DNA from: Bdellovibrionota bacterium
Lineage (GTDB): Bacteria; Bdellovibrionota_C; UBA2361; SZUA-149; CAZDWZ01
NCBI GenBank assembly: GCA_046328905.1
Contig: JAXLVP010000002.1
Location: forward strand, 197,499-261,498
DNA length: 64,000 bases
Direction: 5' to 3'
Shown: positions 913 through 29,134 of the stretch, one piece after another
Position numbering within the stretch: position 1 is the stretch's first letter
How the letters are laid out: every line of letters begins with the position of its first letter
Translations under genes and position numbers: made by a program
Notes under the pieces: model-generated
What the model was told of the DNA's origin: nothing
Database searches by the model: none
Seen by the model: the letters and a program-made list of their open reading frames with translations, nothing else

Positions 913-1823
913 TTTCCGATCTCCTCGATAATCAACTTTCTGCTCAAACCATGCGCCTGCCGAAGCTCGGCGTGGCTACCATAAACGTGAACAAATTCAT
1001 CTTTCAGACTGAAGGTCTTTAAAGCACACGTGGCTTTCGTATCCCACGCAATCTGCTTCACTTGCGCGGCCAGCCCACCTACGCAGGAATGTTCTTCGAT
1101 TGTAACGACGAGTGAATGCGTCTTGAGAGCTTTTGCAATTCCCTCTCGGTCGATAGGCTTCATAGTATGGCAGGAGACGAGCGAAACGGATCGTCCCTGC
1201 CCCGCAAGCTCCTTGGCCACATCACCGGCAAGGTCCATGACATGTCCAAAAGCGAGCACGCACACGTCAGTCCCTTTGGTGATGTATCGAATCTTTCCGA
1301 ACTCGAACGGGTCCACCGCTTTGTCCGTAAAGTTCGGCTCTCCCGCCTTTCCAATTCGGAGATACACGGGTCCTGGTGACACCGCACAGTAGCGAATTGC
1401 CTCCGCGAGCTCGAGGGGGTCACACGGAGCAAGAATTGAGATATTCGGGATCGGACTCAGGATACCCACATCCTCTTGCGTAAGGTGCGTACCTCCGAGC
1501 GTCGAATAAATAATTCCCGCGCCCATTCCGACCACCGTGACTGGCAGATTCTGATAGCAGAGGTCGTCGCGAATCATCTCGAACGGACGATAAGCGCTAA
1601 ATGTGGCGATGGTGTAAGCGAATGGTCGAAATCCGCGAAGAGCCATGCCGGCGCACAAACCGATCATACCCTGCTCGGACACCCCAACATCGATGAACTT
1701 CTCCGGGAATTGTTTGCGAAACAGCTCCATGCTTCCGACGGGAGAGATATCAGCGACGACGCAGCAGATATTCGGATCTGCCATCCCCACTTCATAAAGG
1801 GTCTGGGCAAATAGATTTCTCAT
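909..1823 (-). CDS. transketolase, C-terminal (pyrimidine-binding) subunit
   Basis: 304-aa ORF resembling the pyrimidine-binding/C-terminal half of transketolase (IDVGVSEQGMIG, AGMALRGFRPFAYTIATF, VTVVGMGAGI); coupled to the N-terminal subunit gene immediately upstream. Confidence 0.8.
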   Translation of the reverse strand: MRNLFAQTLYEVGMADPNICCVVADISPVGSMELFRKQFPEKFIDVGVSEQGMIGLCAGMALRGFRPFAYTIATFSAYRPFEMIRDDLCYQNLPVTVVGMGAGIIYSTLGGTHLTQEDVGILSPIPNISILAPCDPLELAEAIRYCAVSPGPVYLRIGKAGEPNFTDKAVDPFEFGKIRYITKGTDVCVLAFGHVMDLAGDVAKELAGQGRSVSLVSCHTMKPIDREGIAKALKTHSLVVTIEEHSCVGGLAAQVKQIAWDTKATCALKTFSLKDEFVHVYGSHAELRQAHGLSRKLIIEEIGK

Positions 1824-2641
1824 CGCAGACCTCCTTCGAGCTCGGACAGCGCTTGCTTATATTCTTCGGCGTTCGGGGAACGATAGTGCCAGATCGGCAC
1901 GTTCTCCATGTAGCTTACACCTTTTCCCTTCGTCGTACGGCAAATAACGAACAGGGGCTTCTGACCTTTCCGCGACATAACCGCATCAAACATCGCCGCC
2001 GAATCGTGGCCGTTTTCGATCTCCTTCACTTCCCAACCGAATGCAGCCACTTTGTCGCCAACCGGATAAAATGTCGGATGCAGCTCGCTCGTGCGTCCAA
2101 GCGATTGAAAGTCGTTGAGGTCAAGGAACGCGACGAGATTTGTGATACCAAGCGAAGACGCAATCATCATGCCTTCCCAGGTCGAGCCTTCTTGCAGCTC
2201 GCCGTCGCTCAACACCGCATACACGTTTGCATCTTCATTTCGGATCTTATGTGCGTAGGCAATTCCGGCAGACATCGTCATGCCATGCCCGAGTGATCCG
2301 GTTGACGCCTCAATACCCGGATTCCCGTAGTCAGGGTGAGTCCCGAGAATCCCGTCCGGCTTGCAGTACCGGTCAAGATGCTTCGACTCCAAAACTCCGA
2401 GCTTTTCGAGCGCCATATACTGGGCCAAACATCCATGCCCTTTGGACATGACGAACGTGTCCGGGCTCGTTCCGTCCGGGTTCCGACGCATGAGCGAGAA
2501 GTAGCAAAGCTCGGTAATCTCCATACAGGAGTAGGCCGACGCGATATGGAGGGCCGAGACCGTTTGCGAGATATGGAGAATCCGCTTGCGGAACTCAAGG
2601 CAGCGAGCCTGCGATGCTGCGAGATCGAATTTTTTCGTCAT
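1820..2641 (-). CDS. transketolase, N-terminal (TPP-binding) subunit
   Basis: TPP-binding half of a split transketolase (SKGHGC, SLGHGMTMSAGIAYA, LSDGELQEGSTWE). Start set at ATG 2641, which has a GAGG RBS 7 nt upstream; the track ORF extends to 2680 (TTG). Confidence 0.8.
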   Translation of the reverse strand: MTKKFDLAASQARCLEFRKRILHISQTVSALHIASAYSCMEITELCYFSLMRRNPDGTSPDTFVMSKGHGCLAQYMALEKLGVLESKHLDRYCKPDGILGTHPDYGNPGIEASTGSLGHGMTMSAGIAYAHKIRNEDANVYAVLSDGELQEGSTWEGMMIASSLGITNLVAFLDLNDFQSLGRTSELHPTFYPVGDKVAAFGWEVKEIENGHDSAAMFDAVMSRKGQKPLFVICRTTKGKGVSYMENVPIWHYRSPNAEEYKQALSELEGGLR

Positions 2642-2661
2642 ATGAGCCTCGTCGCGGACCA

Positions 2662-3315
2662 TCAGTTGATGATCGTCCAATAATAATCGCCGGTGTAGCC
2701 GGCTTCATCGAAAATCTTCTTCCAGAAATCCGGATATCCGTGAGTCTTCGCGGTGAGCACCCACTTCGCAAAGATCTCCTCCTCTTCCTTTGTCCGATAG
2801 GAGTCGACCTGAATGAAGCCTTTGCCTGGTGCGATCCGCTGCATCTCCTTGATCGCCTGAATGCAAAGTGGCCGCTCGAGGTTGTGTAGCGTGTTCAGAG
2901 AGATCGCCGCCGTGAAGCTTTTGTCCGGAAAAGGAAGCTTGAGCGCGTTCCCGAGATGGAGGCGGCCGACGACTTCCGGCTCGCAGTGCATGAGCGCGTA
3001 CTCTGATATCTCAATCCCGTAAACTTCCAAGCCTGGACATACCTTCATGAGGTCCTTGACGAGAAAGCCCTTTGCGCAACCGATGTCGAGAACGCGATCG
3101 CCCGGCTTTAGCCCCCAATGCTCGACGAAAGTCTCGGCGACGGGGATCCAACGACCGTCGTAGCGGTAGCCGCCGTAGCCGTGGTTGCGACTCCCATCGA
3201 AGTAATCCTTCCCGTACTGCAATGCGATGCGTTTGTCCTCCTCGGACGCAGCGGCACGCTCGGTGAGGTTCCGTTTCGGCTTCGGAAGTTTGTGCAGGAG
3301 CTCGATCTCAGCCAT
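2662..3315 (-). CDS. class I SAM-dependent methyltransferase
   Basis: Motif I VLDIGCAKGFL; start placed at ATG 3315 (GAGGA RBS), 1 nt after the upstream stop; track ORF extends to 3348. Confidence 0.7.
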   Translation of the reverse strand: MAEIELLHKLPKPKRNLTERAAASEEDKRIALQYGKDYFDGSRNHGYGGYRYDGRWIPVAETFVEHWGLKPGDRVLDIGCAKGFLVKDLMKVCPGLEVYGIEISEYALMHCEPEVVGRLHLGNALKLPFPDKSFTAAISLNTLHNLERPLCIQAIKEMQRIAPGKGFIQVDSYRTKEEEEIFAKWVLTAKTHGYPDFWKKIFDEAGYTGDYYWTIIN

Positions 3316-3316
3316 T

Positions 3317-4189
3317 CTATCCTCGCGCCTTCTTGATACCTTCGCCAAACGGCGTCATGCGAAAAGCCGGAAAATTGCGTAGGAGCTCAGTGATATCAAA
3401 GTGACGGTGCGTTACCGGGCTTTGTCGCGGTTGATTGACAATTTTCACCTCGGTCATCAATCCCTTGATCGAAGCTGCGACTTCACCAAACGAGAGAGCA
3501 CTGCCCGAAGCGGCGTTGACAACTCCAGTCGCCTTACGAGAAACCAGCTCAGTAATGAGAGAGATGAGATCGTCGATGAACAGATGGTCTCGCTGTTCTT
3601 CGCCCTGACCGGTCAATGAGATCTCATTTTTCTCGAGAGCCGTCTTGAGAAAACGATTCGGGCCATAGCTGTTGTGAGTGTCTCCGGCTCCGTATATCGC
3701 GCAGGGACGAACAATGAGCAGGGGCGTTCCCGCCTTTTTGCAGGACTCCGCCAGCATTCTCTCCCGCGCGAGATGCATCACTCCGTGGAAGCTGCTCGGA
3801 TTACAGGCAGAGGTCTCACGCACCGGATGGGCAGCGTCATCGTAGACTGCATCCGAACTAATATAAACGACATGTGCACACGGATGAGCTTCAATAGCTT
3901 CACACACCGCGTCTGCCATCGCCAGATTCTTCAAGAGAGTCTTCCGGTCCCGCCCTTTGTCAGGCGTAAGGGCCGAAATGAAGACCAGGGTGTCTTCTGA
4001 ATTCAGCGCTTCGCCGAGCTTGGTTCCCGCGTCTTCGGAAAGGAGATCAAGGTCCCGAGATGAGAGCGCCTTCGTTGCCCAACCCAGCTCGCGAGTTTTC
4101 GCTTCTAGATTCTTCCCCACGAAACCACGTGAACCGAGTATTACCATTCGCGAAGGTGTCTTTCTTTCTGACGAACTGAGACTCAGCAT
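3317..4189 (-). CDS. NAD(P)-dependent epimerase/dehydratase family (SDR) sugar reductase/epimerase
   Basis: N-terminal Rossmann motif ILGSRGFVGKNL and SDR-like fold; start at ATG 4189 (GGAG RBS) 1 nt after upstream stop. Confidence 0.65.
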   Translation of the reverse strand: MLSLSSSERKTPSRMVILGSRGFVGKNLEAKTRELGWATKALSSRDLDLLSEDAGTKLGEALNSEDTLVFISALTPDKGRDRKTLLKNLAMADAVCEAIEAHPCAHVVYISSDAVYDDAAHPVRETSACNPSSFHGVMHLARERMLAESCKKAGTPLLIVRPCAIYGAGDTHNSYGPNRFLKTALEKNEISLTGQGEEQRDHLFIDDLISLITELVSRKATGVVNAASGSALSFGEVAASIKGLMTEVKIVNQPRQSPVTHRHFDITELLRNFPAFRMTPFGEGIKKARG

Positions 4190-4190
4190 T

Positions 4191-5483
4191 TCATTTCTCC
4201 GTCTTTTTCCCCAAAGTGTGCACGGTAAAGCCTGCCTGATCAAAATCGCGTGAGCTCAACGCGCCGAACGGATCAAGAACCACCCGCCCCTTCATCGCGT
4301 TGGCGACCTCGCCCGCAGGAATCTTCTTGAACTCTGACCACGGGGTTATGAGCACGAGCACGTCCGCTCCTTCACACGCATGGAGAGCGGATTCGGCTTG
4401 CACGACTCGATTCGCCGCGCGTTCACCGAGCTTCACCATCGGGTCATACGCTCGAACACGTTGAGCCTTCAGCGAATCGATCAGCGCAACGGACGGCGAA
4501 TTCTTGATTGAGTGAGTGTCCGGCTTGTAGGCGATTCCCCAGATTCCGATGAGTGGGTCATCTTGCTTTGAAAACACAACTGACGAAAGCTTCCTGAGTA
4601 CCCAGTCTCGTCGATAGACGGCATTGGAAAACCAAGCTTCGATTACCGAGCTATCTGTTCCATGCTCCCGCGCGAGCGACTGCACGGTCACCAGATCTCG
4701 TTCCAAGTTACCGCCCGCGATCCCAAGACCGGGCTGCAGATACGCATGCGGGCCGATTCTTTTATCAAGCCGAAGTGATGGGGCGATCTCGCCCCACTCT
4801 GCCCCTATCTCTTCGCAAAGCTCTGCGAGCGTGCTCGTCGTAATCACTGAGGAAACCAGAAACATGTTGATAGAGATCTTTGCAAGCTCCGCGCTCTCAT
4901 AGCGCATCGGCAGAACAGGACAATCAAAGAGCGAGAGCACCTTCTGATACGCATCCGGGAGCGGAGCCTTCGGGTCCTTGCAACCAACGATGTATCGCTC
5001 CGGGTTGAGCATGCGGCTCATTGCGATACCGAAGACCAGTGTCTCCACCTGGTAATACAGTTGAATGTTCCGATTCTCGCGTTCGACGAGGGCTCCGAGC
5101 GCTCGGGTGAATCCAGGCGACACCTGGCTGTGGATAACCAGCGTCGCGCCGGTTTTGAGCGACGGGAGAATTTTTTCGAAAAGCTCCAATATCGGCGTTG
5201 GGTCGCTGATATTCTTGTCCGAGGTCGGCACGTCGCGAGCAATGTAGAGCACTTCACATCCGCCGAGGTCAGCTTGGTTCGCGGTGAATCGCACTCGGCT
5301 CCCCGCTTCGTGCAAGAGCTCAGACAGATTCTCCTCGAACACAGGCAGCTCGAACCTCGCCAACTTCGCCACGAGCGACGCGTCCGTTTCGAAGCCGAGA
5401 ATGTTCGCACCGCGAGATGCCAGCCCCACGCCGGTTATGAGACCGAGGTGCGAAAGTCCGACAATACCAACGTTCAGGCTCAC
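4191..5483 (-). CDS. nucleotide-sugar 6-dehydrogenase (UDP-glucose/GDP-mannose dehydrogenase family)
   Basis: 430 aa; N-terminal NAD-binding VGIVGLSHLGL and C-terminal GIAYKPDTHSIKNSPS...YDP motif typical of this family. Confidence 0.8.
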   Translation of the reverse strand: MSLNVGIVGLSHLGLITGVGLASRGANILGFETDASLVAKLARFELPVFEENLSELLHEAGSRVRFTANQADLGGCEVLYIARDVPTSDKNISDPTPILELFEKILPSLKTGATLVIHSQVSPGFTRALGALVERENRNIQLYYQVETLVFGIAMSRMLNPERYIVGCKDPKAPLPDAYQKVLSLFDCPVLPMRYESAELAKISINMFLVSSVITTSTLAELCEEIGAEWGEIAPSLRLDKRIGPHAYLQPGLGIAGGNLERDLVTVQSLAREHGTDSSVIEAWFSNAVYRRDWVLRKLSSVVFSKQDDPLIGIWGIAYKPDTHSIKNSPSVALIDSLKAQRVRAYDPMVKLGERAANRVVQAESALHACEGADVLVLITPWSEFKKIPAGEVANAMKGRVVLDPFGALSSRDFDQAGFTVHTLGKKTEK

Positions 5484-6394
5484 TTCCCCTCCTCATACAG
5501 CTTGCGCAGCGTCCTGTTGATCCAAAGGTCGTTGTCGAGATTCGTACCGCCGCGTTTCGCATGCTCAACAAAATATTCGTATTCGAGCTTCCACGTGGGG
5601 TCGGCACACTCGAGCGTATCGGATGCTTCAGTCGGACGTCCGGATGGCAGAACCCGCTTGCGAACAGTGATCGTGCTCGGCCCCCATTTACACAGGCAGT
5701 TGACATGAAGCGATCCGGCATCTCCGATCACATCCAGCCGAAATGTGTTTCTCCACGACAGCAACGTCGCCTCGAGCTGGATGCGCGGCATCTCAGCTTG
5801 CGAGCCGAAAACAACGTGGTCATACGAATTATTTTCCAGCCGGTAGTAACTGAACGGCTTGAGGTCCGTTCGGTGCTCACCAAGCAAGAAATCGGTTGTA
5901 TCAAGCAGGTGAGAACCGAGGTCCGCCAGCACACCCATTCCTTTGTCTCGCCAGACAGAGTTACGAACTTCACGCGCCGTCCCGTTTCCGTAGAACATCT
6001 CGAGGGAAAGAACCTTCCCAATCTCCCCCGCCGTTATAATTTCGCGGGCGCGGACGAGAAACGGCTCGAAGCGATGGTTGTATGCGGTGTAACAAAACAC
6101 CCGCCGCTTCGCGGCCAGATCGCGAAGGCGCTCGATATCCCGGTCGTCCTCGCTCACGAGCGGTTTTTCGACTAGGACGTGCTTCCCGTTATCGAGGAGG
6201 TAGGAAAGAATCTCGATCTTTGCTTCGTCCGGAGTGCACACCAATGCCGCGTCATACGATTCGAGTGGAACGTCTTGCACTCGCGTAAACTGGGCGTCCG
6301 GCTTTACAGGATCAACCGTCGCAACAAGATCGCTGCCGGCGAACTTGCTGCGTTTCGCACCTTGAATCCCGAGCCCGGCGACGATGACTCTCAT
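5480..6394 (-). CDS. Gfo/Idh/MocA family NAD(P)-dependent oxidoreductase
   Basis: N-terminal Rossmann fold with the VLVEKPL (EKP) signature; translationally coupled on both sides. Confidence 0.75.
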   Translation of the reverse strand: MRVIVAGLGIQGAKRSKFAGSDLVATVDPVKPDAQFTRVQDVPLESYDAALVCTPDEAKIEILSYLLDNGKHVLVEKPLVSEDDRDIERLRDLAAKRRVFCYTAYNHRFEPFLVRAREIITAGEIGKVLSLEMFYGNGTAREVRNSVWRDKGMGVLADLGSHLLDTTDFLLGEHRTDLKPFSYYRLENNSYDHVVFGSQAEMPRIQLEATLLSWRNTFRLDVIGDAGSLHVNCLCKWGPSTITVRKRVLPSGRPTEASDTLECADPTWKLEYEYFVEHAKRGGTNLDNDLWINRTLRKLYEEGK

Positions 6395-7977
6395 CGGAGC
6401 AGGACTTTGCTGATCAGGTTCTTCGACATCTCGGTCATCTGCTCAACCGACTGGAGCTTCGCGATAACGTCATCCGGTGTTACGGGGTGATTTCCGTCTC
6501 TTTCACACGCGACCGCGGCTGCGGCCGAGCCGATGATTGTCGCGATAACCGCCGACTTGCTAGTGTAAAGAGAAAGAGAAGAATAGGAGAGCATCGCATC
6601 GCCCGCGCCGACAGCATCGACGACGTGGTCAACGAAGCTATCGACAATAAAAAACGCTGAGACCTCTTCCGGACTTCGATACGTGAGCACGCCTCGTTCG
6701 CCCATCGTCATCATCAGACATTTGCACTTCGCGCGCGTGAACAGCTCGCGGGCGAGCGGGCGTACGACTGAGTCCTGATCTCCGAGAGCGAAACGAACCT
6801 CGCGCTCGTTCGGCGTGATCAGATCACATCCTTGAAACTCGACGATGTTCCCCCATCGGCTGGCAACTTGGCTATCCGCAACCTTGAAGGTCCCCTCCGG
6901 CACCGCTTCGAGGAATGCCGGGATGGTGTTCCGATTGAAAATTCCGTGACGAAAATCTGAGAACACGACGATGTCGGCCGGAGTATTGACAATCGAGTCG
7001 AGCAGCTGAGCGCGAATACGTTCGGAGATGATCCGATTGTCGACCTTTCCAACTCGAAGGAGATGGTAGCCGCTTGCAAGAAAAGAGTTCTTCTGGGTGG
7101 TCGGGCGTGTTTTGTCGATGACAGCGTGATTGTGAATGCCCGATTCTTTCAGTTCCGACGCGACAAAGTCTTTCAGCGCATCATCGCCCATGACCGTCGA
7201 AAAGGTGACATCCGCGCCCGCTTTTTTGATGTGACGCGACACGACCGCTGCACCGCCTGCAAAGTCCACTTGACGGTCGAACTGCACCGTCATTGTCGGC
7301 GTTTTCACGGCGCCACCCTGCATGCGGCAATACGTGTAGGAATCTACAATCGTGTCGCCGATCACATGCACTTTCACGTCTTTGAATTTGTCGAGTGTTG
7401 AATAGAGGTCTTGGAACGTAATATTCTCGGACTCCATCAGGAGCACGAGCTTCGCCGCTCCCAAGCGAGGGGAGAATGCTTCCGAGTCCGAGCTCGTCGT
7501 ATACTCGGCATCCCCTGGGGTGAAGAGAACTTCGCCGCCGTAAGCCTCTACCGCTGTGACGTCTTCGCGCGCCTTCGCAGGACTGCCGCTCTCGAAATAA
7601 TCAAATCCTTTCGCGAAATAGTCCGGCTGAAGAATGCGGATATTGTCGAGCGGCTGCTCATTTCGATCGATGATGACGTAGTCTACAAACTCTAGCGCAG
7701 CGAGGTTTACCGCGCGAACATCTTCCGGAACCGAAGGTCGCAAGCTCGATCGTTCGATGTACTTGTCTGAGACGAGCGTCGCCACGAGAATATTGGCGCG
7801 CTCCTTCGCGTACATCAGATGGCGAAGATGGCCGGGATGCACGATATCGAACGAGCCGTGACACATCACGACGGACTTCGTCCGCGGATGCGGACCGACG
7901 AGGTCTCGCACCTCCTCCACCGTACGTATCTTGCGGCGGAAATCCTCCGCTTTGTGCTGCTTCTTCGCCTTCATCAT
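6391..7977 (-). CDS. bifunctional cytidylyltransferase-like nucleotidyltransferase / PfkB-family sugar kinase (HldE-like, reversed domain order)
   Basis: N-terminal CHGSFDIVHPGHL (HxGH nucleotidyltransferase motif); C-terminal PfkB kinase (VHVIGDTIVD ... DAVGAGDAM). Confidence 0.7.
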   Translation of the reverse strand: MMKAKKQHKAEDFRRKIRTVEEVRDLVGPHPRTKSVVMCHGSFDIVHPGHLRHLMYAKERANILVATLVSDKYIERSSLRPSVPEDVRAVNLAALEFVDYVIIDRNEQPLDNIRILQPDYFAKGFDYFESGSPAKAREDVTAVEAYGGEVLFTPGDAEYTTSSDSEAFSPRLGAAKLVLLMESENITFQDLYSTLDKFKDVKVHVIGDTIVDSYTYCRMQGGAVKTPTMTVQFDRQVDFAGGAAVVSRHIKKAGADVTFSTVMGDDALKDFVASELKESGIHNHAVIDKTRPTTQKNSFLASGYHLLRVGKVDNRIISERIRAQLLDSIVNTPADIVVFSDFRHGIFNRNTIPAFLEAVPEGTFKVADSQVASRWGNIVEFQGCDLITPNEREVRFALGDQDSVVRPLARELFTRAKCKCLMMTMGERGVLTYRSPEEVSAFFIVDSFVDHVVDAVGAGDAMLSYSSLSLYTSKSAVIATIIGSAAAAVACERDGNHPVTPDDVIAKLQSVEQMTEMSKNLISKVLLR

Positions 7978-8020
7978 CTCCTTGACCGAGGTCTGTGCGC
8001 ACTCCGACGCACTCCTCCGA

Positions 8021-9022
8021 TTAGGTCAATCCGATCTTCTTGATCATCTTCACGTTGAAGTAATGCGGGTCATCGAAGCTGTTCGGGAGCTTCCCGGCTT
8101 TGAACGCTTTACACAGTCCGCGAACGGCATCTTCGATACTGTATTTGGGCTCGAAGCCAAGCACTCGGGCTATTTTCGCCGACGAAACGTGGTATGACCG
8201 AAGGTCGTCGGACTCGGTGGTCACGATTTCAATCGGAGCGAGCTCCGGCATCTCTTCTTCCACGACGTTCTTCACGATAACGGCAAGATCGGCGAGCGTT
8301 CGGTTCTGGAATCCGGCATTGAATGTCTCACCCTGAATCTGTGCCGCCGGTGTCTCGAGCAAGCTCACGTAGAGATCGGTAATATCTTCGATATGAATAT
8401 TCGGCCGCTTCTGAGGTCCGCCGAACACGGTGATCTTGCGTTTATTCACGGCGTGATTCGTAAGAATATTCACCGAAAGGTCGAGACGAGTCCGGGGAGA
8501 GTAACCGCAAATAGTCGCAGGACGGATTACGACACAAACAAAGTCATCAGACTTGTGCTTCAGAAGAAGCGGCTCAGTCAGTCCTTTGTACTTATTGTAA
8601 TCAGTGATCGGCACCAAGGGATGCTCTTCGGTGACTTCCGGCGCATCGCTCACGCCGTAAACGGAGCTCGTCGAGGCGTAGATGAAGCGTTCTACACCCG
8701 CTTCCTTCGTAGCAACGACCATCGGCTCGAAGCAGTCGTAGTTGATAGCCTTGCTCAATCCGTCGTTCAGCTCGAAGCTGGGATCGTTCGAGATACAGGC
8801 GAGGTGGATGATCGAGTCGCAACCGGCAATCGATTTCGCGAAATACGGAGTATCGCGGATGTCGCCTTTGATAACTTTCAGATTTTGATGTTTCGGAATG
8901 CCCTGTTCGCCGTAGAGCATGAGGTCGTAAATCCGAACCTTATGTCCCAATGCGAGGAGCTTCGGAACAAGAACAGAGCCCACATAGCCCGCGCCGCCAG
9001 TTACAAATATTTCACGTTGCAT
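8021..9022 (-). CDS. NAD-dependent epimerase/dehydratase (extended SDR, UDP-sugar 4-epimerase-like)
   Basis: GGAGYVGS Rossmann motif and YNKYK (YxxxK) catalytic motif. Confidence 0.8.
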   Translation of the reverse strand: MQREIFVTGGAGYVGSVLVPKLLALGHKVRIYDLMLYGEQGIPKHQNLKVIKGDIRDTPYFAKSIAGCDSIIHLACISNDPSFELNDGLSKAINYDCFEPMVVATKEAGVERFIYASTSSVYGVSDAPEVTEEHPLVPITDYNKYKGLTEPLLLKHKSDDFVCVVIRPATICGYSPRTRLDLSVNILTNHAVNKRKITVFGGPQKRPNIHIEDITDLYVSLLETPAAQIQGETFNAGFQNRTLADLAVIVKNVVEEEMPELAPIEIVTTESDDLRSYHVSSAKIARVLGFEPKYSIEDAVRGLCKAFKAGKLPNSFDDPHYFNVKMIKKIGLT

Positions 9023-9192
9023 AACCCACCCTCTAAAGCCGTTCCGAACCCATAAAATACCGTAATTACATAATCTTTATGTCATATACGATGCGTGGTC
9101 CAGCCGAAAAGTAGCGGAATACCAAACCTGAAAACCCGCATCTTAAAGCTATGAAGGTAAAACGCCTTCTATCTTTTTGATGAGGTTTTCGC
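9023..9192. promoter_or_regulatory. divergent intergenic region (putative promoters for the 9022-to-79 minus-strand operon and for the SIS-transaldolase gene)
   Basis: 170-bp AT-richer gap between divergently oriented genes; no specific -35/-10 assignment made. Confidence 0.3.
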
Positions 9193-10569
9193 ATGTCATT
9201 TTCAGCCTCCTTCCTCCGTGAAGCGATGCAAATCGCCGACCAACTCGACGAGAGCGCTATCGAACGAGCTGTGCAGGTTCTCCGCCGGACACGAGACAAT
9301 CAGGGAAGGCTGTTTCTGATCGGATCTGGAGGCGGAGCCGGTCATGCATCGCATGCTACCTGCGATTTCCGGAAGCTCTGCAGCATGGAGGCCTACTGCC
9401 CCACCGATAACGTCTCAGAGCTGACCGCCCGAATCAACGACGAAGGATGGGATTCCTCCCTGGCAAACTGGCTCAAAACTTCTCGGTTAAATGGAAAAGA
9501 TTGCCTTTTTGTCTTTTCCGTTGGTGGCGGAAGCGAAGACAAGAACATCTCCGTGAATCTCGTCAACGCTATGAAGGCGGCGAAAGAGGTCGGCGCATCA
9601 ATCGTCGGCGTTGTCGGCCGAGATGGTGGATTTACAGCCAAAGTAGCGGATGCTGCGATAGTGGTGCCAACGGTCGATGCTTCCCGGGTCACTCCTCACA
9701 CAGAAGCCTTCCAAGCGCTCGTTTGGCATTTGATTGTCTCTCATCCGGCTCTCCAAACCGGCACGGCAAAATGGGAAGGAACACAGTCATTTGCCTCAAA
9801 GTCCGGACAAAAGGCGACTTCGATTCACCAGCTGCACGTGAAGGTGTTCGCCGACGGCGCGGAGCTCGCGGGAATGCTTGAAATGTATCGCAACCCCCTC
9901 ATCGCCGGCTTCACGACGAACCCGACGTTGATGAAGAAGGCCGGCATTGTGGACTACGCTGCCTTCGGCAAAGATGTTCTAACGCTCATAAAAGACAAGC
10001 CGATCTCATTCGAGGTGTTCTCCGACGACTTTGCGGAGATGGAAGCACAGGCGCTTACCATCGCTTCTTGGGGCGAGAACGTATATGTGAAGATCCCTAT
10101 CACCAACACCCGTGGTGAATCAGCAGTGCCGCTCGTGAAGCGACTCACCGCTGCTGGAGTCAAAGTAAACGTCACAGCGATTATGACCTTGGAGCAGATC
10201 GAAGAGGTCCTGCCGGCCTTAAAAAATACCGCGGGCGCATACGTCTCCGTGTTCGCGGGTCGAATAGCCGACACCGGCCGCGACCCACTACCGATGATGA
10301 AAGCCACGATGAAAATGCTCGCGGAGCATCCAGCCGTCGAGCTCATCTGGGCGAGCCCCCGTGAGCTGCTAAACATTTTCCAGGCGAACGAGATTGGCTG
10401 CCACGTCATCACGGTAACGAATGACGTCCTGAAGAAGCTCACGCTCGTCGGTAAGGATCTTTCCGAGTATTCGCTCGAGACTGTCCAGATGTTTCGGAAT
10501 GATGCTGTTTCGGCGGGATTTTCGCTTGAAGTGGATTCTGATGGAAAGGAGAGTCAGATAGCGGCGTGA
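9193..10569 (+). CDS. fusion protein: SIS-domain sugar-phosphate isomerase (GmhA-like) + transaldolase/fructose-6-phosphate aldolase-like domain
   Basis: N-terminal SIS motifs (LFLIGSGGGAGHASH; FVFSVGGGSEDKN ... VVGRDGG); C-terminal TalC/FSA-like motifs (GFTTNPTL, Schiff-base-type YVKIP, SVFAGRIAD). Confidence 0.75.
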   Translation: MSFSASFLREAMQIADQLDESAIERAVQVLRRTRDNQGRLFLIGSGGGAGHASHATCDFRKLCSMEAYCPTDNVSELTARINDEGWDSSLANWLKTSRLNGKDCLFVFSVGGGSEDKNISVNLVNAMKAAKEVGASIVGVVGRDGGFTAKVADAAIVVPTVDASRVTPHTEAFQALVWHLIVSHPALQTGTAKWEGTQSFASKSGQKATSIHQLHVKVFADGAELAGMLEMYRNPLIAGFTTNPTLMKKAGIVDYAAFGKDVLTLIKDKPISFEVFSDDFAEMEAQALTIASWGENVYVKIPITNTRGESAVPLVKRLTAAGVKVNVTAIMTLEQIEEVLPALKNTAGAYVSVFAGRIADTGRDPLPMMKATMKMLAEHPAVELIWASPRELLNIFQANEIGCHVITVTNDVLKKLTLVGKDLSEYSLETVQMFRNDAVSAGFSLEVDSDGKESQIAA

Positions 10570-10570: not shown

Positions 10571-10604
10571 CTGCAGCGCAGCGCCGATAAGCGGCGCGCT
10601 GCAG
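10571..10604. terminator. GC-rich hairpin between convergent genes (possible bidirectional terminator)
   Basis: Perfect 9-bp stem CTGCAGCGC / GCGCTGCAG around a 16-nt loop; no U-tract on either side. Confidence 0.3.
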
Positions 10605-11239: not shown

Positions 11240-12487
11240 TTACTCAGGCGAATACCCAAGCCGCTCCATCAATTCTGGCGTCGCAATTGACCGTATCCGA
11301 GCCTTTTGAGATTCGCTGAAGGCGGAGCGCCACTCATCGTTCACGCCCTTGCGGAACGCATAATCGCCTGGCTTGCACTCGTATGGTTCGCCCCGAAATT
11401 CGCTCCGTGGAATTCCGTGGAAATCGACTATCGAACGAAAAAAATCTTCCGGCCGGCTTTTGAAATCTTCAAACTTGGTCCATTGGATCTCGAAGCTCCG
11501 AGACGGATCGGCTTCCGCATCCAACCATCCCTGGATCCATTCGATCTCCACACCGAGGTAGAACTCTATCGCCGCGTCGAGCTTTTCTGCCAACGTCTTC
11601 CGAAAATAGCCTTCTGGAAAATTACACTCGAGCATTGCCATCTCGTATCGCTGCATTTCTGGCGTACGTTGAGCCATCGTTCGCAACGCTTCTTCAACGT
11701 AGAGTATGGACGAATAGAACGCCTGGCGTGGATCGCGGAGGTGGACGTTCACCTTCCTTATACCGCTTAGGTTCAGGGCGAGGATGCTCCGTTTGCACGG
11801 GAACATGTGCGCGTGCAGTATTCCGCCATAGTGGAGAAAGCGTTCGAGCAGCTTCGGGATGATTGGTGCTCTATTTCCACCGTATTGGTCCGTGATCGGG
11901 TCGCGGTGGTCAAGCATACCGAGGCGCCTCGAAAGCTCGGCACAGATGAAGGTTCCGGCTGAATGCCCGATAGCTGCAAAAAGGATGGACTGATGGTTTC
12001 GGAAAGGCTCTCGTTGGGCTTCGAGGTCTAACTGTCTGATCGTATCGCGAAGAACATTGAAAACCTCCATGTTTCCGGGGTGAAATTGGAGGAGGGCGCG
12101 GAGCACCTTGACCGCATCCTCGTGCTGCTTGGACTCCACGAGCAGTCGAGCGAGCGGAAGACCATACTCTACAGCGTCCGGCCGGAAGCGCAGCGCACTC
12201 GTGTAGCTCTGGATAGCTTCTGCTCGGTACTGAAGTAGAGAGCAGAGCTCTGCATGGTGATGAAAGAAAACCGGATGCTTGTGCGGCTGAGAAATCGCCT
12301 TTCTGAGGACTTCGAGAGACTCGAGCGCCTTCCCGGAGCGAAGGAGAGCCACGCCCAACAGATCCAGAACGGACGCATTGTTCGGATCAGCGGCAAGCTC
12401 TGTCTCGAGAACCGAGCATGCCTCATCAATGCGACCCGCTTCCAGGTTCGCTAGCGCGTTCGGCGGATAATGGATCTCAGTCAGCAA
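11240..12487 (-). CDS. TPR-repeat protein with C-terminal sulfotransferase-fold domain
   Basis: N-terminal TPR-like repeats; C-terminal sulfotransferase-like motifs (LRDPRQAFYSS resembling the 3'-phosphate-binding region; FRKGVNDEWRSAFSE resembling the C-terminal RKG..GDWKN.F motif). Confidence 0.55.
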   Translation of the reverse strand: MLTEIHYPPNALANLEAGRIDEACSVLETELAADPNNASVLDLLGVALLRSGKALESLEVLRKAISQPHKHPVFFHHHAELCSLLQYRAEAIQSYTSALRFRPDAVEYGLPLARLLVESKQHEDAVKVLRALLQFHPGNMEVFNVLRDTIRQLDLEAQREPFRNHQSILFAAIGHSAGTFICAELSRRLGMLDHRDPITDQYGGNRAPIIPKLLERFLHYGGILHAHMFPCKRSILALNLSGIRKVNVHLRDPRQAFYSSILYVEEALRTMAQRTPEMQRYEMAMLECNFPEGYFRKTLAEKLDAAIEFYLGVEIEWIQGWLDAEADPSRSFEIQWTKFEDFKSRPEDFFRSIVDFHGIPRSEFRGEPYECKPGDYAFRKGVNDEWRSAFSESQKARIRSIATPELMERLGYSPE

Positions 12488-13378: not shown

Positions 13379-15790
13379 TTAACTGCGCTCGGGTCCATTC
13401 GACGCGAGTACGCGAACTTTCCGATTTGCACAGTCGATCTGAAGATGACGAGCGCGAGACCACTCTGCGTAGTTCTGTTCCCCACAACCAATGACAGCCG
13501 GGATCCCAAGCTCAGCGCAGCGAATCGCCATGTGCGAGTTCACGCCTCCGTACATCGTCACAAGTGCACCGATTTTGCGAGAGAAGATCCAGTCGTGGCC
13601 CGGATCGGCGCTCCGAATGAAAACAATCTTCTGTGAAAGATCGATCTCGAATAAGTCTTCCTCGATGACGACGGTTTCGGCTATCGCACGTCGGGTGATG
13701 AAGTTCGGCTCAACCTCGCTGAGAAAAAAGTGTAGCGCGTCTGCATCGCGCTGGATCAGTTGCGGCAAACGGATTGCGCAGGCCACATCGTATCGCTGCT
13801 TATTCCGCTGGATGTCCGTCCGGAGAATCTCCGGAAGAGATTCATGGGTCAGGTTCGTATAGAGATGCCGCACTGTTTCGATATCGACGAACGCAAGGTC
13901 CTCACGAGCCATGCCGTGTTTCTCGCCGAGCTCCACCAGATACGAAAGTATCTGGCTGACATTCCGGCTAAACAAGAACTTCCCATATTCCCGTCCTTCG
14001 ACAGCTTCCCGGATGAACTGAAAAAACTCGTCGACGCTCGCGAGGAGTCCGTTTTCCTTCAGCGCGTCTGCAACACGCCCGTATTGTTCGGAAGTTAGGT
14101 GGAACTCACATTCTGCCGACTCGGTTACGCCGCACGACAGCCCTTGGAAGTATAATTCTGGAGCCTCATCGTAACGAAGCGACAGTATGTCGTACGTTCC
14201 AGGACGCAGATGACCATATCGTTGAAGGAACTCTTCCTTGCTGAGCGTTCCCACTTGCACTCGCTCCGTATCGTTCGCCAATCGCTTCGCAACCGTATTC
14301 AGCGATCCGAGAAAGCTCTGATAGTCCTCGTCGGAAAAAATTTTTAGGTCCACAAGAGATCGGAGCATCTGCACGGCGATAAAACCCGCGCGCGCGAGGC
14401 CAGCGAAAGGCAAAGTGCCGTATCGTTTTCCATCTTCGATGAGCCAATAGATTTTATCGATCGGGGACAACTCGCTCGCCACGATGCCGTCAAATCGGCT
14501 CGTCAGCTCATCGAGCTTTTTCAAATCTTCCTGATACAGACCCTTTGTTGTCGAAACCACTGTGTTTGTTAGATCCAGGAGAGCGTATTTCAGCCGGTCT
14601 AGCTCCAACTCAGTGAAGCCGTGACGCAGCAGCTTCTTGATGCGCGTGGCAAGATTCAAATCGTAGCATGAGTGGACGATTTCGAACTCTACCTTGTCAT
14701 GGTCGCTCGGGCGCTCTGTAAGCTGATCCATGTAGTAATTGACAAGCTTGTGAGCGAGCGCATTGTCGACTTTTTGCGGGACAAATGAGCTGAAGCTCGC
14801 TCGAATGTCGATATATGGAAGGCCCAAAAAATCGACCAAAAGCGGGCAACTGCGCACGTTCTTGTAGCCGTAATTGTTCCTTTGATATGCCCAGATATCG
14901 TCGGTGATAAGCTGTTGGTAGAGTGATCGCGCGAGCGCCTTCGGACGGAGGCCAATCATCTCAGCCGGATTCCAATCCGTCATGACGCTGTACATTCCGC
15001 GGTCACCGAAGAGATACGGGTGGGGCCGACTCAGCTTTTCCAGTTTTGAGCGGATGCGCACCAGATATTGAGCAAAGTCGTTTTCCGAGATTGACGAAGC
15101 TGTCGGGCGGGCGGCGATAGGCCGCACTTGAAATAAGATAAGCTCGTCAGAAGCGGTGAATGCAAACTCGATGTCGAGCCGATCGCATTCAAAAAGTGCT
15201 TCGAGCTCCTCGAGGCACCCGACAATGCGATCTAATCGCTTTTGCGGTGCCGGTTCTTTGGTTCCCCGAAACCGAATGTAAGTCTTTGTTTGATGGGTCC
15301 CTGCGGTTACGCTCGACGTTGAAGTTGTGGTGTCGTCGTAGTTGATGACATAGTACGGAGCGAGAGAATCGCCGTCTCGCGAGAATGCAACACCACTCAG
15401 GACTGCGTCGGAAAGATGCGGTTGCACAAAAAATTCGTCGGAAGATTCTTCTCGCCCGTATGATCGGATGACGCTATCAATAGCATCGACGACGGACTTT
15501 GTGTCCCCAGTAACCACGTTTCCGATCGAGCAGAACTCTCCCGCGTGAGACGCGCTCGCAGAGTCTTCAGCGGCGCAGGAGCTTCGCACAATGATCTGCG
15601 GTGAGGAAGAAAACTCGTCCTGAATAGTTCGAATGACATTCTCAGATTCCGTTCGCCACGTTTCGACTGTAAAACATCTTAGGGGAAGTACCGTCGATCG
15701 GCTCAGACGACCTTTCAATGCGAGTAACGTTTGGGCCTTCGTGCTGAAGTGGATTCGAGCCATTTTGAACCTTGCGGGTGAAACTGCCAC
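13379..15790 (-). CDS. PEP-utilising-enzyme family dikinase-like phosphotransferase (rifampin-phosphotransferase / glucan-water-dikinase-type architecture)
   Basis: N-terminal PPDK-type nucleotide-binding motif (RSSCAAEDSASASHAGEF); C-terminal swivel His domain (GGVNSHMAIRCAELGIPAVIGCG); no C-terminal TIM barrel, so not a canonical PEP synthase. Confidence 0.7.
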   Translation of the reverse strand: MAVSPARFKMARIHFSTKAQTLLALKGRLSRSTVLPLRCFTVETWRTESENVIRTIQDEFSSSPQIIVRSSCAAEDSASASHAGEFCSIGNVVTGDTKSVVDAIDSVIRSYGREESSDEFFVQPHLSDAVLSGVAFSRDGDSLAPYYVINYDDTTTSTSSVTAGTHQTKTYIRFRGTKEPAPQKRLDRIVGCLEELEALFECDRLDIEFAFTASDELILFQVRPIAARPTASSISENDFAQYLVRIRSKLEKLSRPHPYLFGDRGMYSVMTDWNPAEMIGLRPKALARSLYQQLITDDIWAYQRNNYGYKNVRSCPLLVDFLGLPYIDIRASFSSFVPQKVDNALAHKLVNYYMDQLTERPSDHDKVEFEIVHSCYDLNLATRIKKLLRHGFTELELDRLKYALLDLTNTVVSTTKGLYQEDLKKLDELTSRFDGIVASELSPIDKIYWLIEDGKRYGTLPFAGLARAGFIAVQMLRSLVDLKIFSDEDYQSFLGSLNTVAKRLANDTERVQVGTLSKEEFLQRYGHLRPGTYDILSLRYDEAPELYFQGLSCGVTESAECEFHLTSEQYGRVADALKENGLLASVDEFFQFIREAVEGREYGKFLFSRNVSQILSYLVELGEKHGMAREDLAFVDIETVRHLYTNLTHESLPEILRTDIQRNKQRYDVACAIRLPQLIQRDADALHFFLSEVEPNFITRRAIAETVVIEEDLFEIDLSQKIVFIRSADPGHDWIFSRKIGALVTMYGGVNSHMAIRCAELGIPAVIGCGEQNYAEWSRARHLQIDCANRKVRVLASNGPERS

Positions 15791-15882
15791 CAGACCTCAT
15801 AACCTCCCAATTTGATGTTTTTTCCTACTCCAAGATTCGAAAACTTGCGGGCCTTTTACCGGGCCTGTAGCTTCTAAACTGA

Positions 15883-16392
15883 ATGGACGATCAGTCGAAT
15901 AGCGCGCGAATTTTTTGGATTACTGGTTACCCCGGTGCCGGAAAAACCACACTCGCGAAAGAGGTAATGCTCGCCTTGGAGTCGCGGGGCACACCAGCGA
16001 TACTCGTCGACGGCGACGCTGTCAGGGCTATCTTCGGAAATGACTTAAGCTACGACGACGCAGGCAGAATTCAGAACGCTTGGCGCATCGCACGACTTTG
16101 CAAATTTGTCGCCGGCCAGAATATCGTGGTCGTTGCTGCTACTGTGTCTCTCTACGCGGAGGTGCGCGATTGGCTTCGCGGCGAATGTAGTGGATATCGG
16201 GAGGTCTTTGTTTCCGTAACGAAAGAAACGCTCCAGCAGAGAGACCAAAAAGGGCTCTATTCTTCCGGCGCCCCGGTTCCAGGCCTCACTCAGAGATCAG
16301 AAGAACCGCTGAATCCGCACTTGAGGATACAGAATGACGAACATCGAGAATCTTTCGCATCGCTCGCCGAGACGATTCTCGCTCTCCGGTGA
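15883..16392 (+). CDS. adenylylsulfate (APS) kinase family protein (CysC-like nucleotide 3'-kinase)
   Basis: P-loop GYPGAGKTT and LVDGDAVR motif typical of APS kinase; 169 aa. Confidence 0.75.
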   Translation: MDDQSNSARIFWITGYPGAGKTTLAKEVMLALESRGTPAILVDGDAVRAIFGNDLSYDDAGRIQNAWRIARLCKFVAGQNIVVVAATVSLYAEVRDWLRGECSGYREVFVSVTKETLQQRDQKGLYSSGAPVPGLTQRSEEPLNPHLRIQNDEHRESFASLAETILALR

Positions 16393-20840: not shown

Positions 20841-20846
20841 GACGAA

Positions 20847-21962: not shown

Positions 21963-21987
21963 GCCACCTCCCAAAATCCGCTGCGCG

Positions 21988-26598: not shown

Positions 26599-26600
26599 GC

Positions 26601-29128: not shown

Positions 29129-29134
29129 GGAAGT

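Follow-up and report, generated by a model that had tools for sequence, protein, structure and literature searches.

What would a single polypeptide make if it carried both a sugar-phosphate isomerase of the SIS type and a transaldolase (TAL), and is such a polypeptide genuine? One gene of the window, a 64,000-nt stretch of a Bdellovibrionota contig, raises both questions. It lies beside a set of sugar-nucleotide genes (Table 1), and its structure, its relatives in other genomes and its neighbors were compared with characterized enzymes.

One gene, two domains

One gene was confirmed to join a GmhA-like SIS isomerase to a complete transaldolase. The ORF is preceded by a GAGG Shine-Dalgarno-like motif about 9 nt 5′ of its ATG, and in the homologue search its product is a 100% match to P0001, “MAG: transaldolase [Bdellovibrionota bacterium].” Pfam places SIS_2 at aa 10–142 (E 1.5e-7) and TAL_FSA at aa 218–438 (E 1.2e-41), with 143 bits for PF00923 against a cut-off of 27; the NCBIfam model TIGR02134 (“transaldolase”) covers aa 212–445 at 351 bits, against 281.95. 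The domain HMM check thus bears out the combination of SIS and TalC/FSA-type transaldolase domains that a preliminary description of the region had read from the sequence.

The AlphaFold2 model (mean pLDDT 89) has two compact domains and a low-confidence linker at aa 198–210. The linker columns are gapped and unconserved in the homologue alignment, and stand-alone SIS proteins terminate at “...KWES,” immediately before the point where the linker of the fusion starts. No inter-domain interface is confidently predicted in this model (pTM 0.52). Homologues of the TAL half are decamers, and those of GmhA tetramers. With a flexible linker, no confident interface and both domain orders occurring among homologues, the direct channeling of pentose-phosphate carbon into a heptose pathway that had been proposed for the fusion is without structural support.

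The gene is monocistronic and divergent from a minus-strand sugar operon, a layout also seen in the syntenic locus L001 and in the P0006 contig. A promoter scan found no sigma-70 consensus match in the intergenic region between them. A GC-rich hairpin directly 3′ of the stop codon, between convergent genes, may be a terminator; the T-run terminator scan did not detect it.

The source is a metagenome-assembled genome, and elsewhere the two parts mostly occur as separate genes, in some cases with only one in-frame stop between them, as might be expected if an assembly error or frameshift had artificially joined two genes here. However, the search found about 65 fused homologue clusters from independent assemblies and sources, 45–74% identical over their full length, and L001 carries the same SIS-TAL fusion. 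These exclude a sequencing frameshift. GC content does not shift across the junction (0.53–0.57), the linker has no in-frame stop, and the end point of stand-alone SIS proteins coincides with its start. A chimera is ruled out on the same grounds, and the chance of any artefact is vanishingly small.

The transaldolase and isomerase halves

The motifs GFTTNPTL (aa 239–246) and YVKIP (aa 298–302) are both present in the transaldolase half. Lys300 (nt 10090–10092, in NVYVKIPIT) aligns to the Schiff-base Lys86 on beta-strand 4 of the Thermoplasma acidophilum transaldolase, and is invariant in two alignments of 47 and 32 homologues. The full set of key residues (D221, T241/T242/N243, S272/E274, K300, N326/T328, S352/F354/R357, and S388/R390) is invariant in the 32-sequence alignment; D221, N243, S272/E274, N326/T328, S352/R357, and S388/R390 align to Asp6, Asn28, Ser58/Glu60, Asn108/Thr110, Ser130/Arg135, and Ser167/Arg169. 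The model shows a complete (beta/alpha)8 barrel, with eight strand/helix alternations and pLDDT mostly above 90 over aa 211–449. Foldseek gives TM scores of 0.80–0.87, normalized to the short decameric transaldolases, for 1vpx (T. maritima), 3s0c (T. acidophilum), and 3r8r (B. subtilis), and 4xz9 is also among the structure matches. The fusion shares the catalytic and phosphate-binding residues of these solved enzymes, but is only about 25–31% identical to them and differs in being joined to an isomerase.

F354 aligns to F132, the TAL-type Phe rather than the FSA-type Tyr; position 132 reportedly separates transaldolases (Phe) from fructose-6-P aldolases (Tyr), according to F132Y work on TacTAL. 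The discriminating Phe is shared with the three solved enzymes, and models for fructose-6-P aldolase score just 56–88 bits against cut-offs of 214–246, so that an aldolase identity was rejected. The C-terminal half is an intact TAL-type transaldolase in which all catalytic residues checked are kept, supporting the earlier description of it as complete. Its family, TIGR02134 (“transald_staph”), is one whose cut-off it passes, but it sits in a glycan operon rather than a pentose-phosphate context. A precedent for joining a transaldolase to a sugar-phosphate aldose-ketose isomerase exists in the bifunctional transaldolase/phosphoglucose isomerase PRK09533. That protein, however, combines a long classical transaldolase with PGI in about 950 aa and belongs to central metabolism, and membership of the fusion in this Tal-Pgi family was rejected (19.6 bits vs. 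712, matching aa 284–342 only).

The SIS half is less easily named. All of its 13 best PDB matches are phosphoheptose isomerases (best E 5e-15), followed by DiaA (E 2e-6), and hhalign pairs it with E. coli GmhA at 97.4% probability. Its scores against the gmhA profiles are nevertheless all far below cut-off: 48.7 bits vs. 209.45 for TIGR00441, 46.5 vs. 320 for PRK13938, 42.6 vs. 276 for PRK13936, and 38.7 vs. 265 for PRK00414. A stand-alone SIS orthologue from Rhodoblastus likewise falls below the GmhA cut-offs.

The invariant residues of the SIS half include H54, D58, K61, D72, N82, D83, S109, S120, N122, T167, E171, and H179; 27–32 diverse sequences show no change at H54, D58, E171, H179, or the ND motif. 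H54, D58, N82/D83, S109, and S120 are the equivalents of GmhA H61, E65, N93/D94, S119, and S124, with hhalign pairing H54/D58 with His61/Glu65 and a conservative Glu to Asp change at D58. Profile alignments to GmhA stop near aa 162–167, before the C-terminal helix, and the placement of E171/H179 under E. coli Q172/H180 (a conservative Gln to Glu change) comes from MAFFT and an equal 8-residue spacing only. His61, Glu65, Gln172, and His180 (E. coli numbering) are reported as catalytic or metal-site residues in the GmhA structural studies of Taylor in 2008 and Harmer in 2010. The phosphate loop differs more. It reads S109-V110-G111-G112-G113, then a 6-aa insertion and S120, where GmhA has S119-T120-S121-G-N-S124; the flanking serines are kept, but T120/S121 are replaced by V/G (SVGGGS vs. 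STSGNS).

Compared with GmhA proteins of known structure (E. coli 2i22, B. pseudomallei 2x3y, C. jejuni 1tk9), then, the SIS half has the same fold, gives its best sequence and profile matches to them, appears to keep two His, an acidic, the ND, and the Ser positions, and is linked to a heptose-type kinase, phosphatase, and nucleotidyltransferase. It is, however, only 27–31% identical, carries the changes E65 to D, Q172 to E, and T120/S121 to V/G besides the loop insertion, and belongs to a set of proteins which, unlike GmhA, nearly always adjoin a transaldolase. Members of that set are 54–73% identical to one another across phyla and 27–37% identical to GmhA-like proteins. By curated thresholds the SIS half is not a bona fide GmhA; it belongs to a separate, highly conserved TAL-linked clade. 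The GmhA-like label given to it earlier holds as to its closest relatives, but not as family membership, and because it lies in this distinct clade, a conversion of sedoheptulose-7-P to heptose-7-P by this domain is presumptive. In two loci, L020 and L021, the TAL-linked SIS adjoins another GmhA-like gene or gene set of more canonical type, so that the two products are probably not redundant.

The window encodes a second SIS protein (33032–33907), which was rejected as a canonical GmhA: it scores 47.9 bits and has no equivalents of the His and Asp.

Table 1. Positions of the fusion gene, its domains, and other features of the window.
Feature	Position (nt)	Strand	Basis or remark
Split transketolase, C half	909–1823	−	within 909–3348
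Split transketolase, N half	1820–2680	−	within 909–3348
Methyltransferase	2662–3348	−	within 909–3348
SDR	3317–4243	−	within 3317–6394 gene set
NDP-sugar dehydrogenase	4191–5483	−	within 3317–6394 gene set
GFO/IDH/MocA oxidoreductase	5480–6394	−	within 3317–6394 gene set
HldE-like bifunctional enzyme, swapped domain order	6391–7977	−	Pfam; rfaE_dom_I and rfaE_dom_II scores
SDR epimerase/dehydratase “EPI2,” first gene of divergent operon	8021–9022	−	Pfam Epimerase, E 1.4e-32
Divergent intergenic region, fusion gene/minus-strand operon	9023–9192	.	170 bp
Fusion gene, SIS isomerase + transaldolase	9193–10569	+	458 aa, uninterrupted ORF, ATG start
SIS domain, GmhA-like, aa 1–197	9193–9783	+	PDB matches, hhalign, HMM scores
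Inter-domain linker, aa 198–210	9784–9822	+	pLDDT <50; length and sequence vary among homologues
Transaldolase TIM-barrel domain, aa 211–449	9823–10539	+	TIGR02134, alignment to 3s0c/1vpx, Foldseek
GC-rich hairpin, possible terminator without T-run	10571–10604	.	14-nt arms, 6-nt loop
NTP-transferase	19477–20265	−	within 19477–22100
GmhB-like HAD phosphatase	20262–20840	−	GmhB PRK08942, 132.9 vs. 178
UDP-galactopyranose-mutase-like flavoenzyme (GLF)	20847–22100	−	within 19477–22100

Neighbors in the window and in other genomes

SIS lies next to TAL, usually as a separate gene, in 68 of the 80 top-scoring GTDB loci (more than 12 phyla); the usual arrangement is SIS-HAD-TAL, in two conserved operon types, and SIS adjacency persists beside TALs of only 40–44% identity. 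Fusions occur as SIS-TAL, TAL-SIS, SIS-HAD-TAL, and HAD-TAL, some fused homologues also carrying the GmhB-like phosphatase. (Long match spans gave an impression that most GTDB matches were triple fusions, which was rejected when stop-to-stop ORFs proved to be mostly separate adjacent genes.) A homologue search seeded with a Solirubrobacterales SIS returned only near-identical soil proteins among its top 120. In a Pelagibacteraceae locus just TAA-AAT-ATG, in frame, lies between SIS and TAL, indicating that fusion arises easily. The fusion is the common layout of adjacent genes with a stop codon lost, and gives co-expression and proximity. The remark that it is unusual for a glycan locus holds for the fusion itself, which is uncommon, but not for the SIS-(HAD)-TAL module, which is widespread; carriers of the operon include Acidobacteriota, Planctomycetota, Lachnospiraceae, Pelagibacteraceae, and cultured Rhodoblastus (R. 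sphagnicola DSM 16996) and Bradyrhizobium (B. manausense).

Fusions in several orders and SIS/TAL adjacency argue for functional coupling of the two enzymes. The alternative is an accidental fusion, in which a housekeeping pentose-phosphate transaldolase carries an independent SIS domain, or one that is non-catalytic or regulatory, like DiaA. TIGR02134 carries the annotation of a housekeeping transaldolase family, one distant family member stands alone among genes for hypothetical proteins, and the PDB matches include DiaA, a GmhA homologue that is not an enzyme. But the DiaA matches are much weaker than those to GmhA, the putative catalytic residues are invariant as described above, and the linkage recurs in several permutations, each time in the company of sugar-activating genes. 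It is therefore very unlikely that the two activities are independent or that the SIS domain is inactive.

Two types of operon were compared, type A (n = 10), with an HldE-like activator as in the window, and type B (n = 43), with a GHMP kinase and an NTP-transferase; the type-B gene set is EPI, NDP-DH, SDR, GFO, GHMP kinase, NTP-transferase, SIS, HAD, and TAL. EPI2 follows TAL in all type-A loci (49–74% identity), and the HldE-like enzyme is also kept there (47–60%). HldE (RfaE), heptose-7-P kinase/heptose-1-P adenylyltransferase, is itself a fusion of consecutive heptose-activation enzymes. The window protein matches both of its halves, but in reversed order, with a cytidylyltransferase-like N-terminal half and a PfkB kinase C-terminal half, both below cut-off (rfaE_dom_I 157 vs. 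345, rfaE_dom_II 82 vs. 181), and it is separate from the SIS-TAL protein. The three genes that follow, likely for NDP-sugar tailoring enzymes, have the same order in type-A loci, and the DH/GFO/SDR set is found in type-B loci too. Farther away, the HAD protein at 20262–20840 is likely the missing phosphatase of the pathway; in Bradyrhizobium manausense (L007) a HAD-GLF pair immediately precedes SIS-TAL, and its GLF is 70% identical. Across both operon types, the best family matches are HldE, HddA, HddC, and GmhB (HldE and GmhB in the window; HddA, HddC, and GmhB in the 43 type-B loci), but with GmhA at 44–49 of the 209–320 bits needed, HddA at 173 of the 600 bits needed, HddC at 89 of 300, and GmhB at 108–133 of 178, only TAL reaches its cut-off.

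The split transketolase, whose C half matches the C. hydrogenoformans split transketolase (6yaj, E 4e-49), had been taken together with the fusion to make the locus self-sufficient for C7 sugar. It is found in 0 of 43 type-B operons and is missing from about 4 of the 10 type-A loci (L040, L043, L052, L070), where the sequence continues beyond the methyltransferase. It was rejected as an obligatory partner, and is an accessory rather than a conserved supply partner. Self-sufficient C7 supply is therefore not a conserved design.

Heptose, octose, or another higher sugar

Since its neighbors include HldE-like, GmhB-like, and sugar-nucleotide-modifying genes, the fusion gene most likely feeds a nucleotide-activated higher-sugar pathway, as a bifunctional entry enzyme that would supply a C7 or C8 sugar phosphate. 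We infer both activities, the chain length of the substrate, and the order of steps as follows. The class-I transaldolase half would take up the dihydroxyacetone unit of fructose-6-P as a Schiff base on Lys300 and pass it to an aldose phosphate, yielding a longer ketose phosphate, which the GmhA-like SIS half would isomerize to an aldose phosphate. The domain-swapped HldE-like neighbor would phosphorylate this at C1 and nucleotidylate it, the GmhB-like HAD phosphatase having taken off the terminal phosphate; SDR, NDP-sugar dehydrogenase, GFO, and methyltransferase would then tailor the NDP-sugar, and the product would go into a surface glycan.

In the heptose version, erythrose-4-P and fructose-6-P would give sedoheptulose-7-P and then heptose-7-P. 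Sedoheptulose-7-P is the canonical transaldolase product, and the named families that match best all belong to heptose pathways. Against this, the module enzymes other than TAL are below the curated heptose-pathway cut-offs, the SIS phosphate loop is remodeled relative to GmhA, sedoheptulose-7-P is an ordinary metabolite, we know of no characterized heptose locus that carries a transaldolase, and the one characterized transaldolase-bearing cluster found (Lmb/Ccb) makes an octulose. The heptose reading is plausible and the likeliest of those considered, at a little short of an even chance.

The Lmb/Ccb cluster suggests instead an octose module, in which TAL would move the C3 unit of fructose-6-P or sedoheptulose-7-P to ribose-5-P, giving octulose-8-P, and SIS would convert this to octose-8-P; kinase, phosphatase, and nucleotidyltransferase would lead to an NDP-octose, to be tailored by NDP-sugar dehydrogenase, GFO, and SDR (compare LmbL, LmbZ, and LmbM). 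In lincomycin and celesticetin synthesis the transaldolase LmbR makes D-glycero-D-altro-octulose-8-P, which the GmhA-like LmbN isomerizes to octose-8-P, so that a transaldolase and then an isomerase give a higher aldose phosphate, as proposed for the fusion. They work with LmbP kinase, LmbK phosphatase (HAD), LmbO nucleotidyltransferase, LmbL dehydrogenase, LmbM epimerase, and LmbZ NAD(P) oxidoreductase.

LmbR and LmbN are the only characterized pair of transaldolase and GmhA-like isomerase found in the literature searched, and type-B operons hold the same enzyme classes as Lmb/Ccb. The operon always includes a TAL of its own even though sedoheptulose-7-P is readily at hand in metabolism, all of the enzymes lie far below the heptose equivalog cut-offs, and in L021 and L020 the TAL-linked set stands beside the second, more GmhA-like one. 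The likeness to Lmb concerns enzyme classes only, however, and there are differences: the Streptomyces LmbR and LmbN are separate proteins, LmbN being joined to a carrier protein, and belong to an antibiotic cluster with an aminotransferase, whereas in the window SIS and TAL are fused, in a surface-glycan locus with an HldE-like activator rather than the GHMP kinase/NT pair of Lmb. Precursor-supply genes in clusters are often not strictly required, and to our knowledge linear octoses are almost unknown in bacterial glycans, Kdo-type acids aside, whereas heptoses are common there. The octose reading is a possibility to be taken seriously, if less probable than the heptose one.

The acceptor could also be a different aldose phosphate (e.g., arabinose-5-P or a hexose-6-P), or the product a non-manno epimer, and in type-A operons the split transketolase could lengthen the chain further. 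Transaldolases take aldose phosphates of several lengths, and the altered SIS phosphate loop would be consistent with another substrate. The type-A operon of the window adds the split transketolase and methyltransferases, and from the alignment ranges the transketolase C half seems to be without an N-terminal Arg equivalent to human R318. But nothing points to any particular alternative substrate, and the transketolase, missing from many type-A and all type-B operons, cannot belong to the core chemistry. Such a product appears unlikely.

The component enzymes are known, and the fusion is a new variant; neither a TAL-GmhA fusion nor a widespread octose pathway was found described in the literature searches. 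The fusion serves as a “Rosetta stone,” tying a SIS clade with poor annotation (its members are labeled “SIS domain-containing protein” or, through transfer, “sedoheptulose-7-P isomerase”) to a transaldolase annotated as a housekeeping pentose-phosphate enzyme, and the link exposes a conserved operon that would build and activate a sugar of at least seven carbons. If the sugar is a heptose, the operon would be a version of a known pathway that supplies itself, and a caveat should be added to the annotation of TIGR02134. Tentatively, SIS-(HAD)-TAL with kinase and nucleotidyltransferase may instead correspond, in primary metabolism, to the octose pathway of the lincosamides, making NDP-octose for surface glycans in at least 12 phyla. 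An octose would reveal a class of glycan precursors that is new, and with it where the lincosamide sugar came from in evolution. Octoses or longer linear sugars would be widespread but overlooked building blocks of glycans; in some operons of the window type the split transketolase could lengthen them by two carbons, and the sugar pathway of lincomycin would have been taken over as a whole from such an operon.

The fused protein and its two halves

The fusion gene is one uninterrupted ORF of 458 aa with an ATG start, the sole plus-strand gene between two minus-strand blocks and divergent from the operon at 79-9022. Its stop-to-stop frame opens only at 9184, so a start codon upstream of 9193 is impossible; the ATG is preceded, at about 9 nt, by a GAGG motif, and GC content is flat across the SIS/transaldolase (TAL) junction. 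By Pfam, aa 10-142 match SIS_2 (E 1.5e-7) and aa 218-438 match TAL_FSA (E 1.2e-41), bearing out the preliminary description of both domains in one polypeptide. An NCBI entry on a 1.87-Mb contig of a Bdellovibrionota MAG matches the protein at 100% identity; its annotation reads simply "transaldolase." The same fusion was also sought elsewhere, and about 65 further clusters (45-74% identity, full length), from independent assemblies in ENA, JGI, Logan, and NCBI, carry both Pfam domains. These speak against joining by an assembly or frameshift error, a possibility raised earlier and now extremely improbable.

An AlphaFold2 model built from an alignment of 32 fused homologues (mean pLDDT 89) has compact domains at aa 1-197 and 211-449, with a connecting linker of pLDDT <50; because pTM is 0.52, their predicted relative orientation is undefined. 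The C-terminal half scores 351 bits against NCBIfam TIGR02134 "transaldolase" (cut-off 282), and its barrel matches short decameric transaldolases (Foldseek TM 0.80-0.87). In alignments with the Thermoplasma (TacTAL, 3s0c) and Thermotoga (1vpx) enzymes, all catalytic and phosphate-binding positions checked are retained: D221 (TacTAL D6), N243 (N28), S272 and E274 (S58, E60), the Schiff-base K300 (K86), N326 and T328 (N108, T110), S352, F354, and R357 (S130, F132, R135), and S388 and R390 (S167, R169). All are invariant in the 32 fused homologues. Phe at TacTAL position 132 marks a transaldolase as opposed to a fructose-6-phosphate aldolase, from F132Y work. With every tested feature in agreement, this half is a transaldolase family member, complete with its lysine as first proposed. 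The protein does not belong to the Tal-Pgi fusion family.

For the N-terminal half, every one of the 12-13 top PDB matches is a phosphoheptose isomerase, DiaA ranking well lower, and hhalign gives its profile 97.4% probability against E. coli GmhA (reference sequence checked against 2i22). The hhalign equivalences are H54 (GmhA H61), D58 (E65), N82 and D83 (N93, D94), S109 (S119), and S120 (S124); E171 (Q172) and H179 (H180) are matched by MAFFT and equal spacing only. GmhA T120/S121 are replaced by V/G, and the phosphate loop has six inserted residues. The putative catalytic set is invariant among homologues, and it is very unlikely that the two domains are independent or inactive. Against four NCBIfam GmhA models, however, this half scores only 39-49 bits (cut-offs 209-320). 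The earlier GmhA-like assignment thus holds for nearest relatives and residue set but not for curated family scores: judged by sequence, the domain is GmhA-like with a plausible catalytic set, outside GmhA by curated criteria, and would resemble GmhA in its working, although membership is not demonstrable.

Permutations and gene pairs

Both domain orders occur among the aligned fused homologues. TAL-SIS examples from the protein search are P0051, P0054, P0057, P0061, P0063, and P0116, the last with a canonical-looking GmhA module. There are also triple proteins with a GmhB-like HAD phosphatase between SIS and TAL (P0018, P0042, P0049), HAD-TAL proteins, NTP-transferase-SIS and SIS-HAD ORFs among the comparison loci, and, from an exhaustive search, some longer chains in which one end matches SIS or TAL. 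One HAD + TAL protein (P0048, 554 aa) is from a eukaryote protein set (eukprot s1_g1457.t1); either contamination or horizontal acquisition of the module by a eukaryote could account for it.

A GTDB scan with one genome per species yielded 596 or more related stretches, of which the best 80 were examined. Long matches were ruled out as triple fusions, the stop-to-stop ORFs being mostly separate: SIS, HAD, and TAL are generally adjoining genes, arranged as SIS-HAD-TAL or SIS-TAL. TAL and SIS share a locus in 68 of these 80 genomes. Such loci occur in Acidobacteriota, Planctomycetota, Elusimicrobia, Omnitrophota, Chloroflexota, Ignavibacteria, Chlorobium, Bacteroidales, Lachnospiraceae, Melainabacteria, Pelagibacteraceae, Holosporaceae, Legionellales, and Myxococcota, with Bradyrhizobium manausense and Rhodoblastus sphagnicola as cultured carriers. 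Of three distant TALs picked at random (40-44% identity), two have SIS directly 5' and the third is solitary.

In a Pelagibacteraceae single-cell genome (L006, 10580-10592), TAA-AAT-ATG alone separates SIS from TAL, in frame, and stand-alone SIS proteins terminate at "...KWES," precisely where the window's linker starts. From this spacing and end point, the fusion is a stop-loss variant of a common SIS/TAL gene pair. A single base change in the L006 junction would recreate it. Public names are "transaldolase" for the fusion and "SIS domain-containing protein" or "D-sedoheptulose 7-phosphate isomerase" for the stand-alone SIS; no description of the fusion or operon was found in the part of the literature covered.

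Operon types and the glycan locus

Two operon types were distinguished. Type A (the window, 10 of 82 comparison loci, and the contig of the homologue P0006) runs SIS-(HAD)-TAL, SDR, SDR, HldE-like with reversed halves, GFO/IDH/MocA oxidoreductase (GFO), NDP-sugar dehydrogenase, SDR, methyltransferase, sometimes followed by a split transketolase. Type B (43 loci, Rhodoblastus among them) runs SDR, NDP-sugar dehydrogenase, SDR, GFO, GHMP kinase, NTP-transferase, SIS, HAD, TAL. The top NCBIfam matches of the activating enzymes in both are heptose-pathway families, at scores far under cut-off (HldE kinase half 157 bits against 345, HldE transferase half 82 against 181, HddA 173 against 600, HddC 89 against 300, GmhB 108-133 against 178).

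The window's phosphatase gene does not adjoin the fusion gene; it lies beside NTP-transferase and UDP-galactopyranose-mutase-like (GLF) genes. In B. manausense (L007) a HAD-GLF pair is directly upstream of SIS-TAL (upstream of 10001), and the two GLF proteins are 70% identical. The pairing hints at conversion of the activated sugar to a furanose form.

Features of the window
Feature	Position	Strand	Remarks
C-terminal transketolase subunit	909-1823	-	start aligns just past human transketolase phosphate-binding Arg R318
HldE-like bifunctional enzyme	6391-7977	-	nucleotidyltransferase N-terminal, PfkB kinase C-terminal (reversed halves); both under curated HldE cut-offs; 47-60% identity throughout type-A operons
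SIS-TAL fusion gene	9193..10569	+	
GC-rich hairpin	10571-10604		3' of fusion-gene stop codon
ORF, 177 aa	10610-11143		convergent with fusion gene; no Pfam match
TPR-repeat protein	11240-12487	-	inside glycan locus
PEP-utiliser/PPDK-like protein	13379-16392		803 aa; NCBIfam PRK05849 "hypothetical protein," 970 bits
GmhB-like phosphatase	20262-20840		
GLF flavoenzyme	20847-22100	-	paired with GmhB-like phosphatase, as in L007
Five-gene block	24287-30300	+	radical-SAM/SPASM enzyme, unknown protein, DegT aminotransferase, 2OG-Fe(II) oxygenase, formyltransferase
TPR-repeat protein	31018-32982	+	inside glycan locus
Second SIS_2 protein	33032-33907	-	291 aa, ~120-aa N-terminal extension

Elsewhere in the locus, the PPDK-like gene adjoins an adenylyl-sulfate-kinase-like gene (133 bits). 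The pair is similar to Campylobacter Cj1418 and Cj1415, from the O-methyl-phosphoramidate pathway, so the glycan may bear a phosphoramidate-type modification. The five-gene block, whose oxygenase matches TIGR04324 "sporadic carbohydrate cluster" (319 bits), looks like a second, amino-sugar branch. The large C-terminal regions of both TPR proteins have no family match. The second SIS_2 protein shares 28% identity with the fused SIS domain, has no His54 and Asp58 equivalents, and adjoins UDP-GlcNAc 2-epimerase and GT4 glycosyltransferase genes.

Sugar supply and chain length of the product

The window's transketolase halves are real, the C half matching the C. hydrogenoformans split transketolase (E 4e-49). 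The subunit at 909-1823 may, from its aligned start, lack an R318-equivalent Arg, which bears on use of ordinary sugar phosphates. Transketolase and TAL together could convert two F6P to S7P and Xu5P, so the self-supply proposed for this locus is biochemically coherent. Halves lie 3' of the methyltransferase in the window, its syntenic locus L001, L006, L007, L039, and the P0006 contig, but are absent from all 43 type-B operons and from four type-A loci (L040, L043, L052, L070; 1.4-2.6 kb of sequence beyond the methyltransferase). Transketolase is an accessory, a supply booster or tailoring enzyme, and not a conserved partner.

A shared logic very probably underlies these operons. With F6P and an aldose phosphate as substrates, TAL would make a ketose phosphate of greater chain length, SIS would isomerise it, the kinase, phosphatase, and nucleotidyltransferase would activate the isomerised sugar phosphate, and tailoring of the activated sugar would fall to the SDR, dehydrogenase, GFO, and methyltransferase. 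The product could well be a C7 sugar, at slightly under an even chance, because the nearest named families are all heptose enzymes; S7P is the canonical transaldolase product, and heptoses are common among bacterial glycans. An acceptor other than those of the C7 reading and of the C8 reading below is unlikely.

More tentatively, the product may be a C8 sugar, by analogy with the lincomycin/celesticetin (Lmb/Ccb) octose pathway, where LmbR forms octulose-8-P from ribose-5-P and LmbN then isomerises it. Lmb/Ccb is the only characterised cluster found with a comparable set (transaldolase, GmhA-like isomerase, kinase, HAD phosphatase, nucleotidyltransferase, dehydrogenase, epimerase, NAD(P) oxidoreductase), although the likeness extends only to enzyme classes. 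The operon invariably includes a dedicated transaldolase even though S7P is an ordinary metabolite, and SIS proteins linked to TAL group in a tight clade (54-73% identity across phyla, only 27-37% to GmhA-like proteins). In Ignavibacteriaceae (L021, 3726-15219) and Anaerolineales (L020, 2997-12362) loci, the TAL-linked set also lies within a few kb of a second, more canonical GmhA-like gene (103-114 bits), accompanied in L021 by an HddA-like kinase and an NTP-transferase of its own, so that paralogous "heptose-type" pathways, two in number, stand side by side. An octose product, if true, would make the fusion of greater interest.
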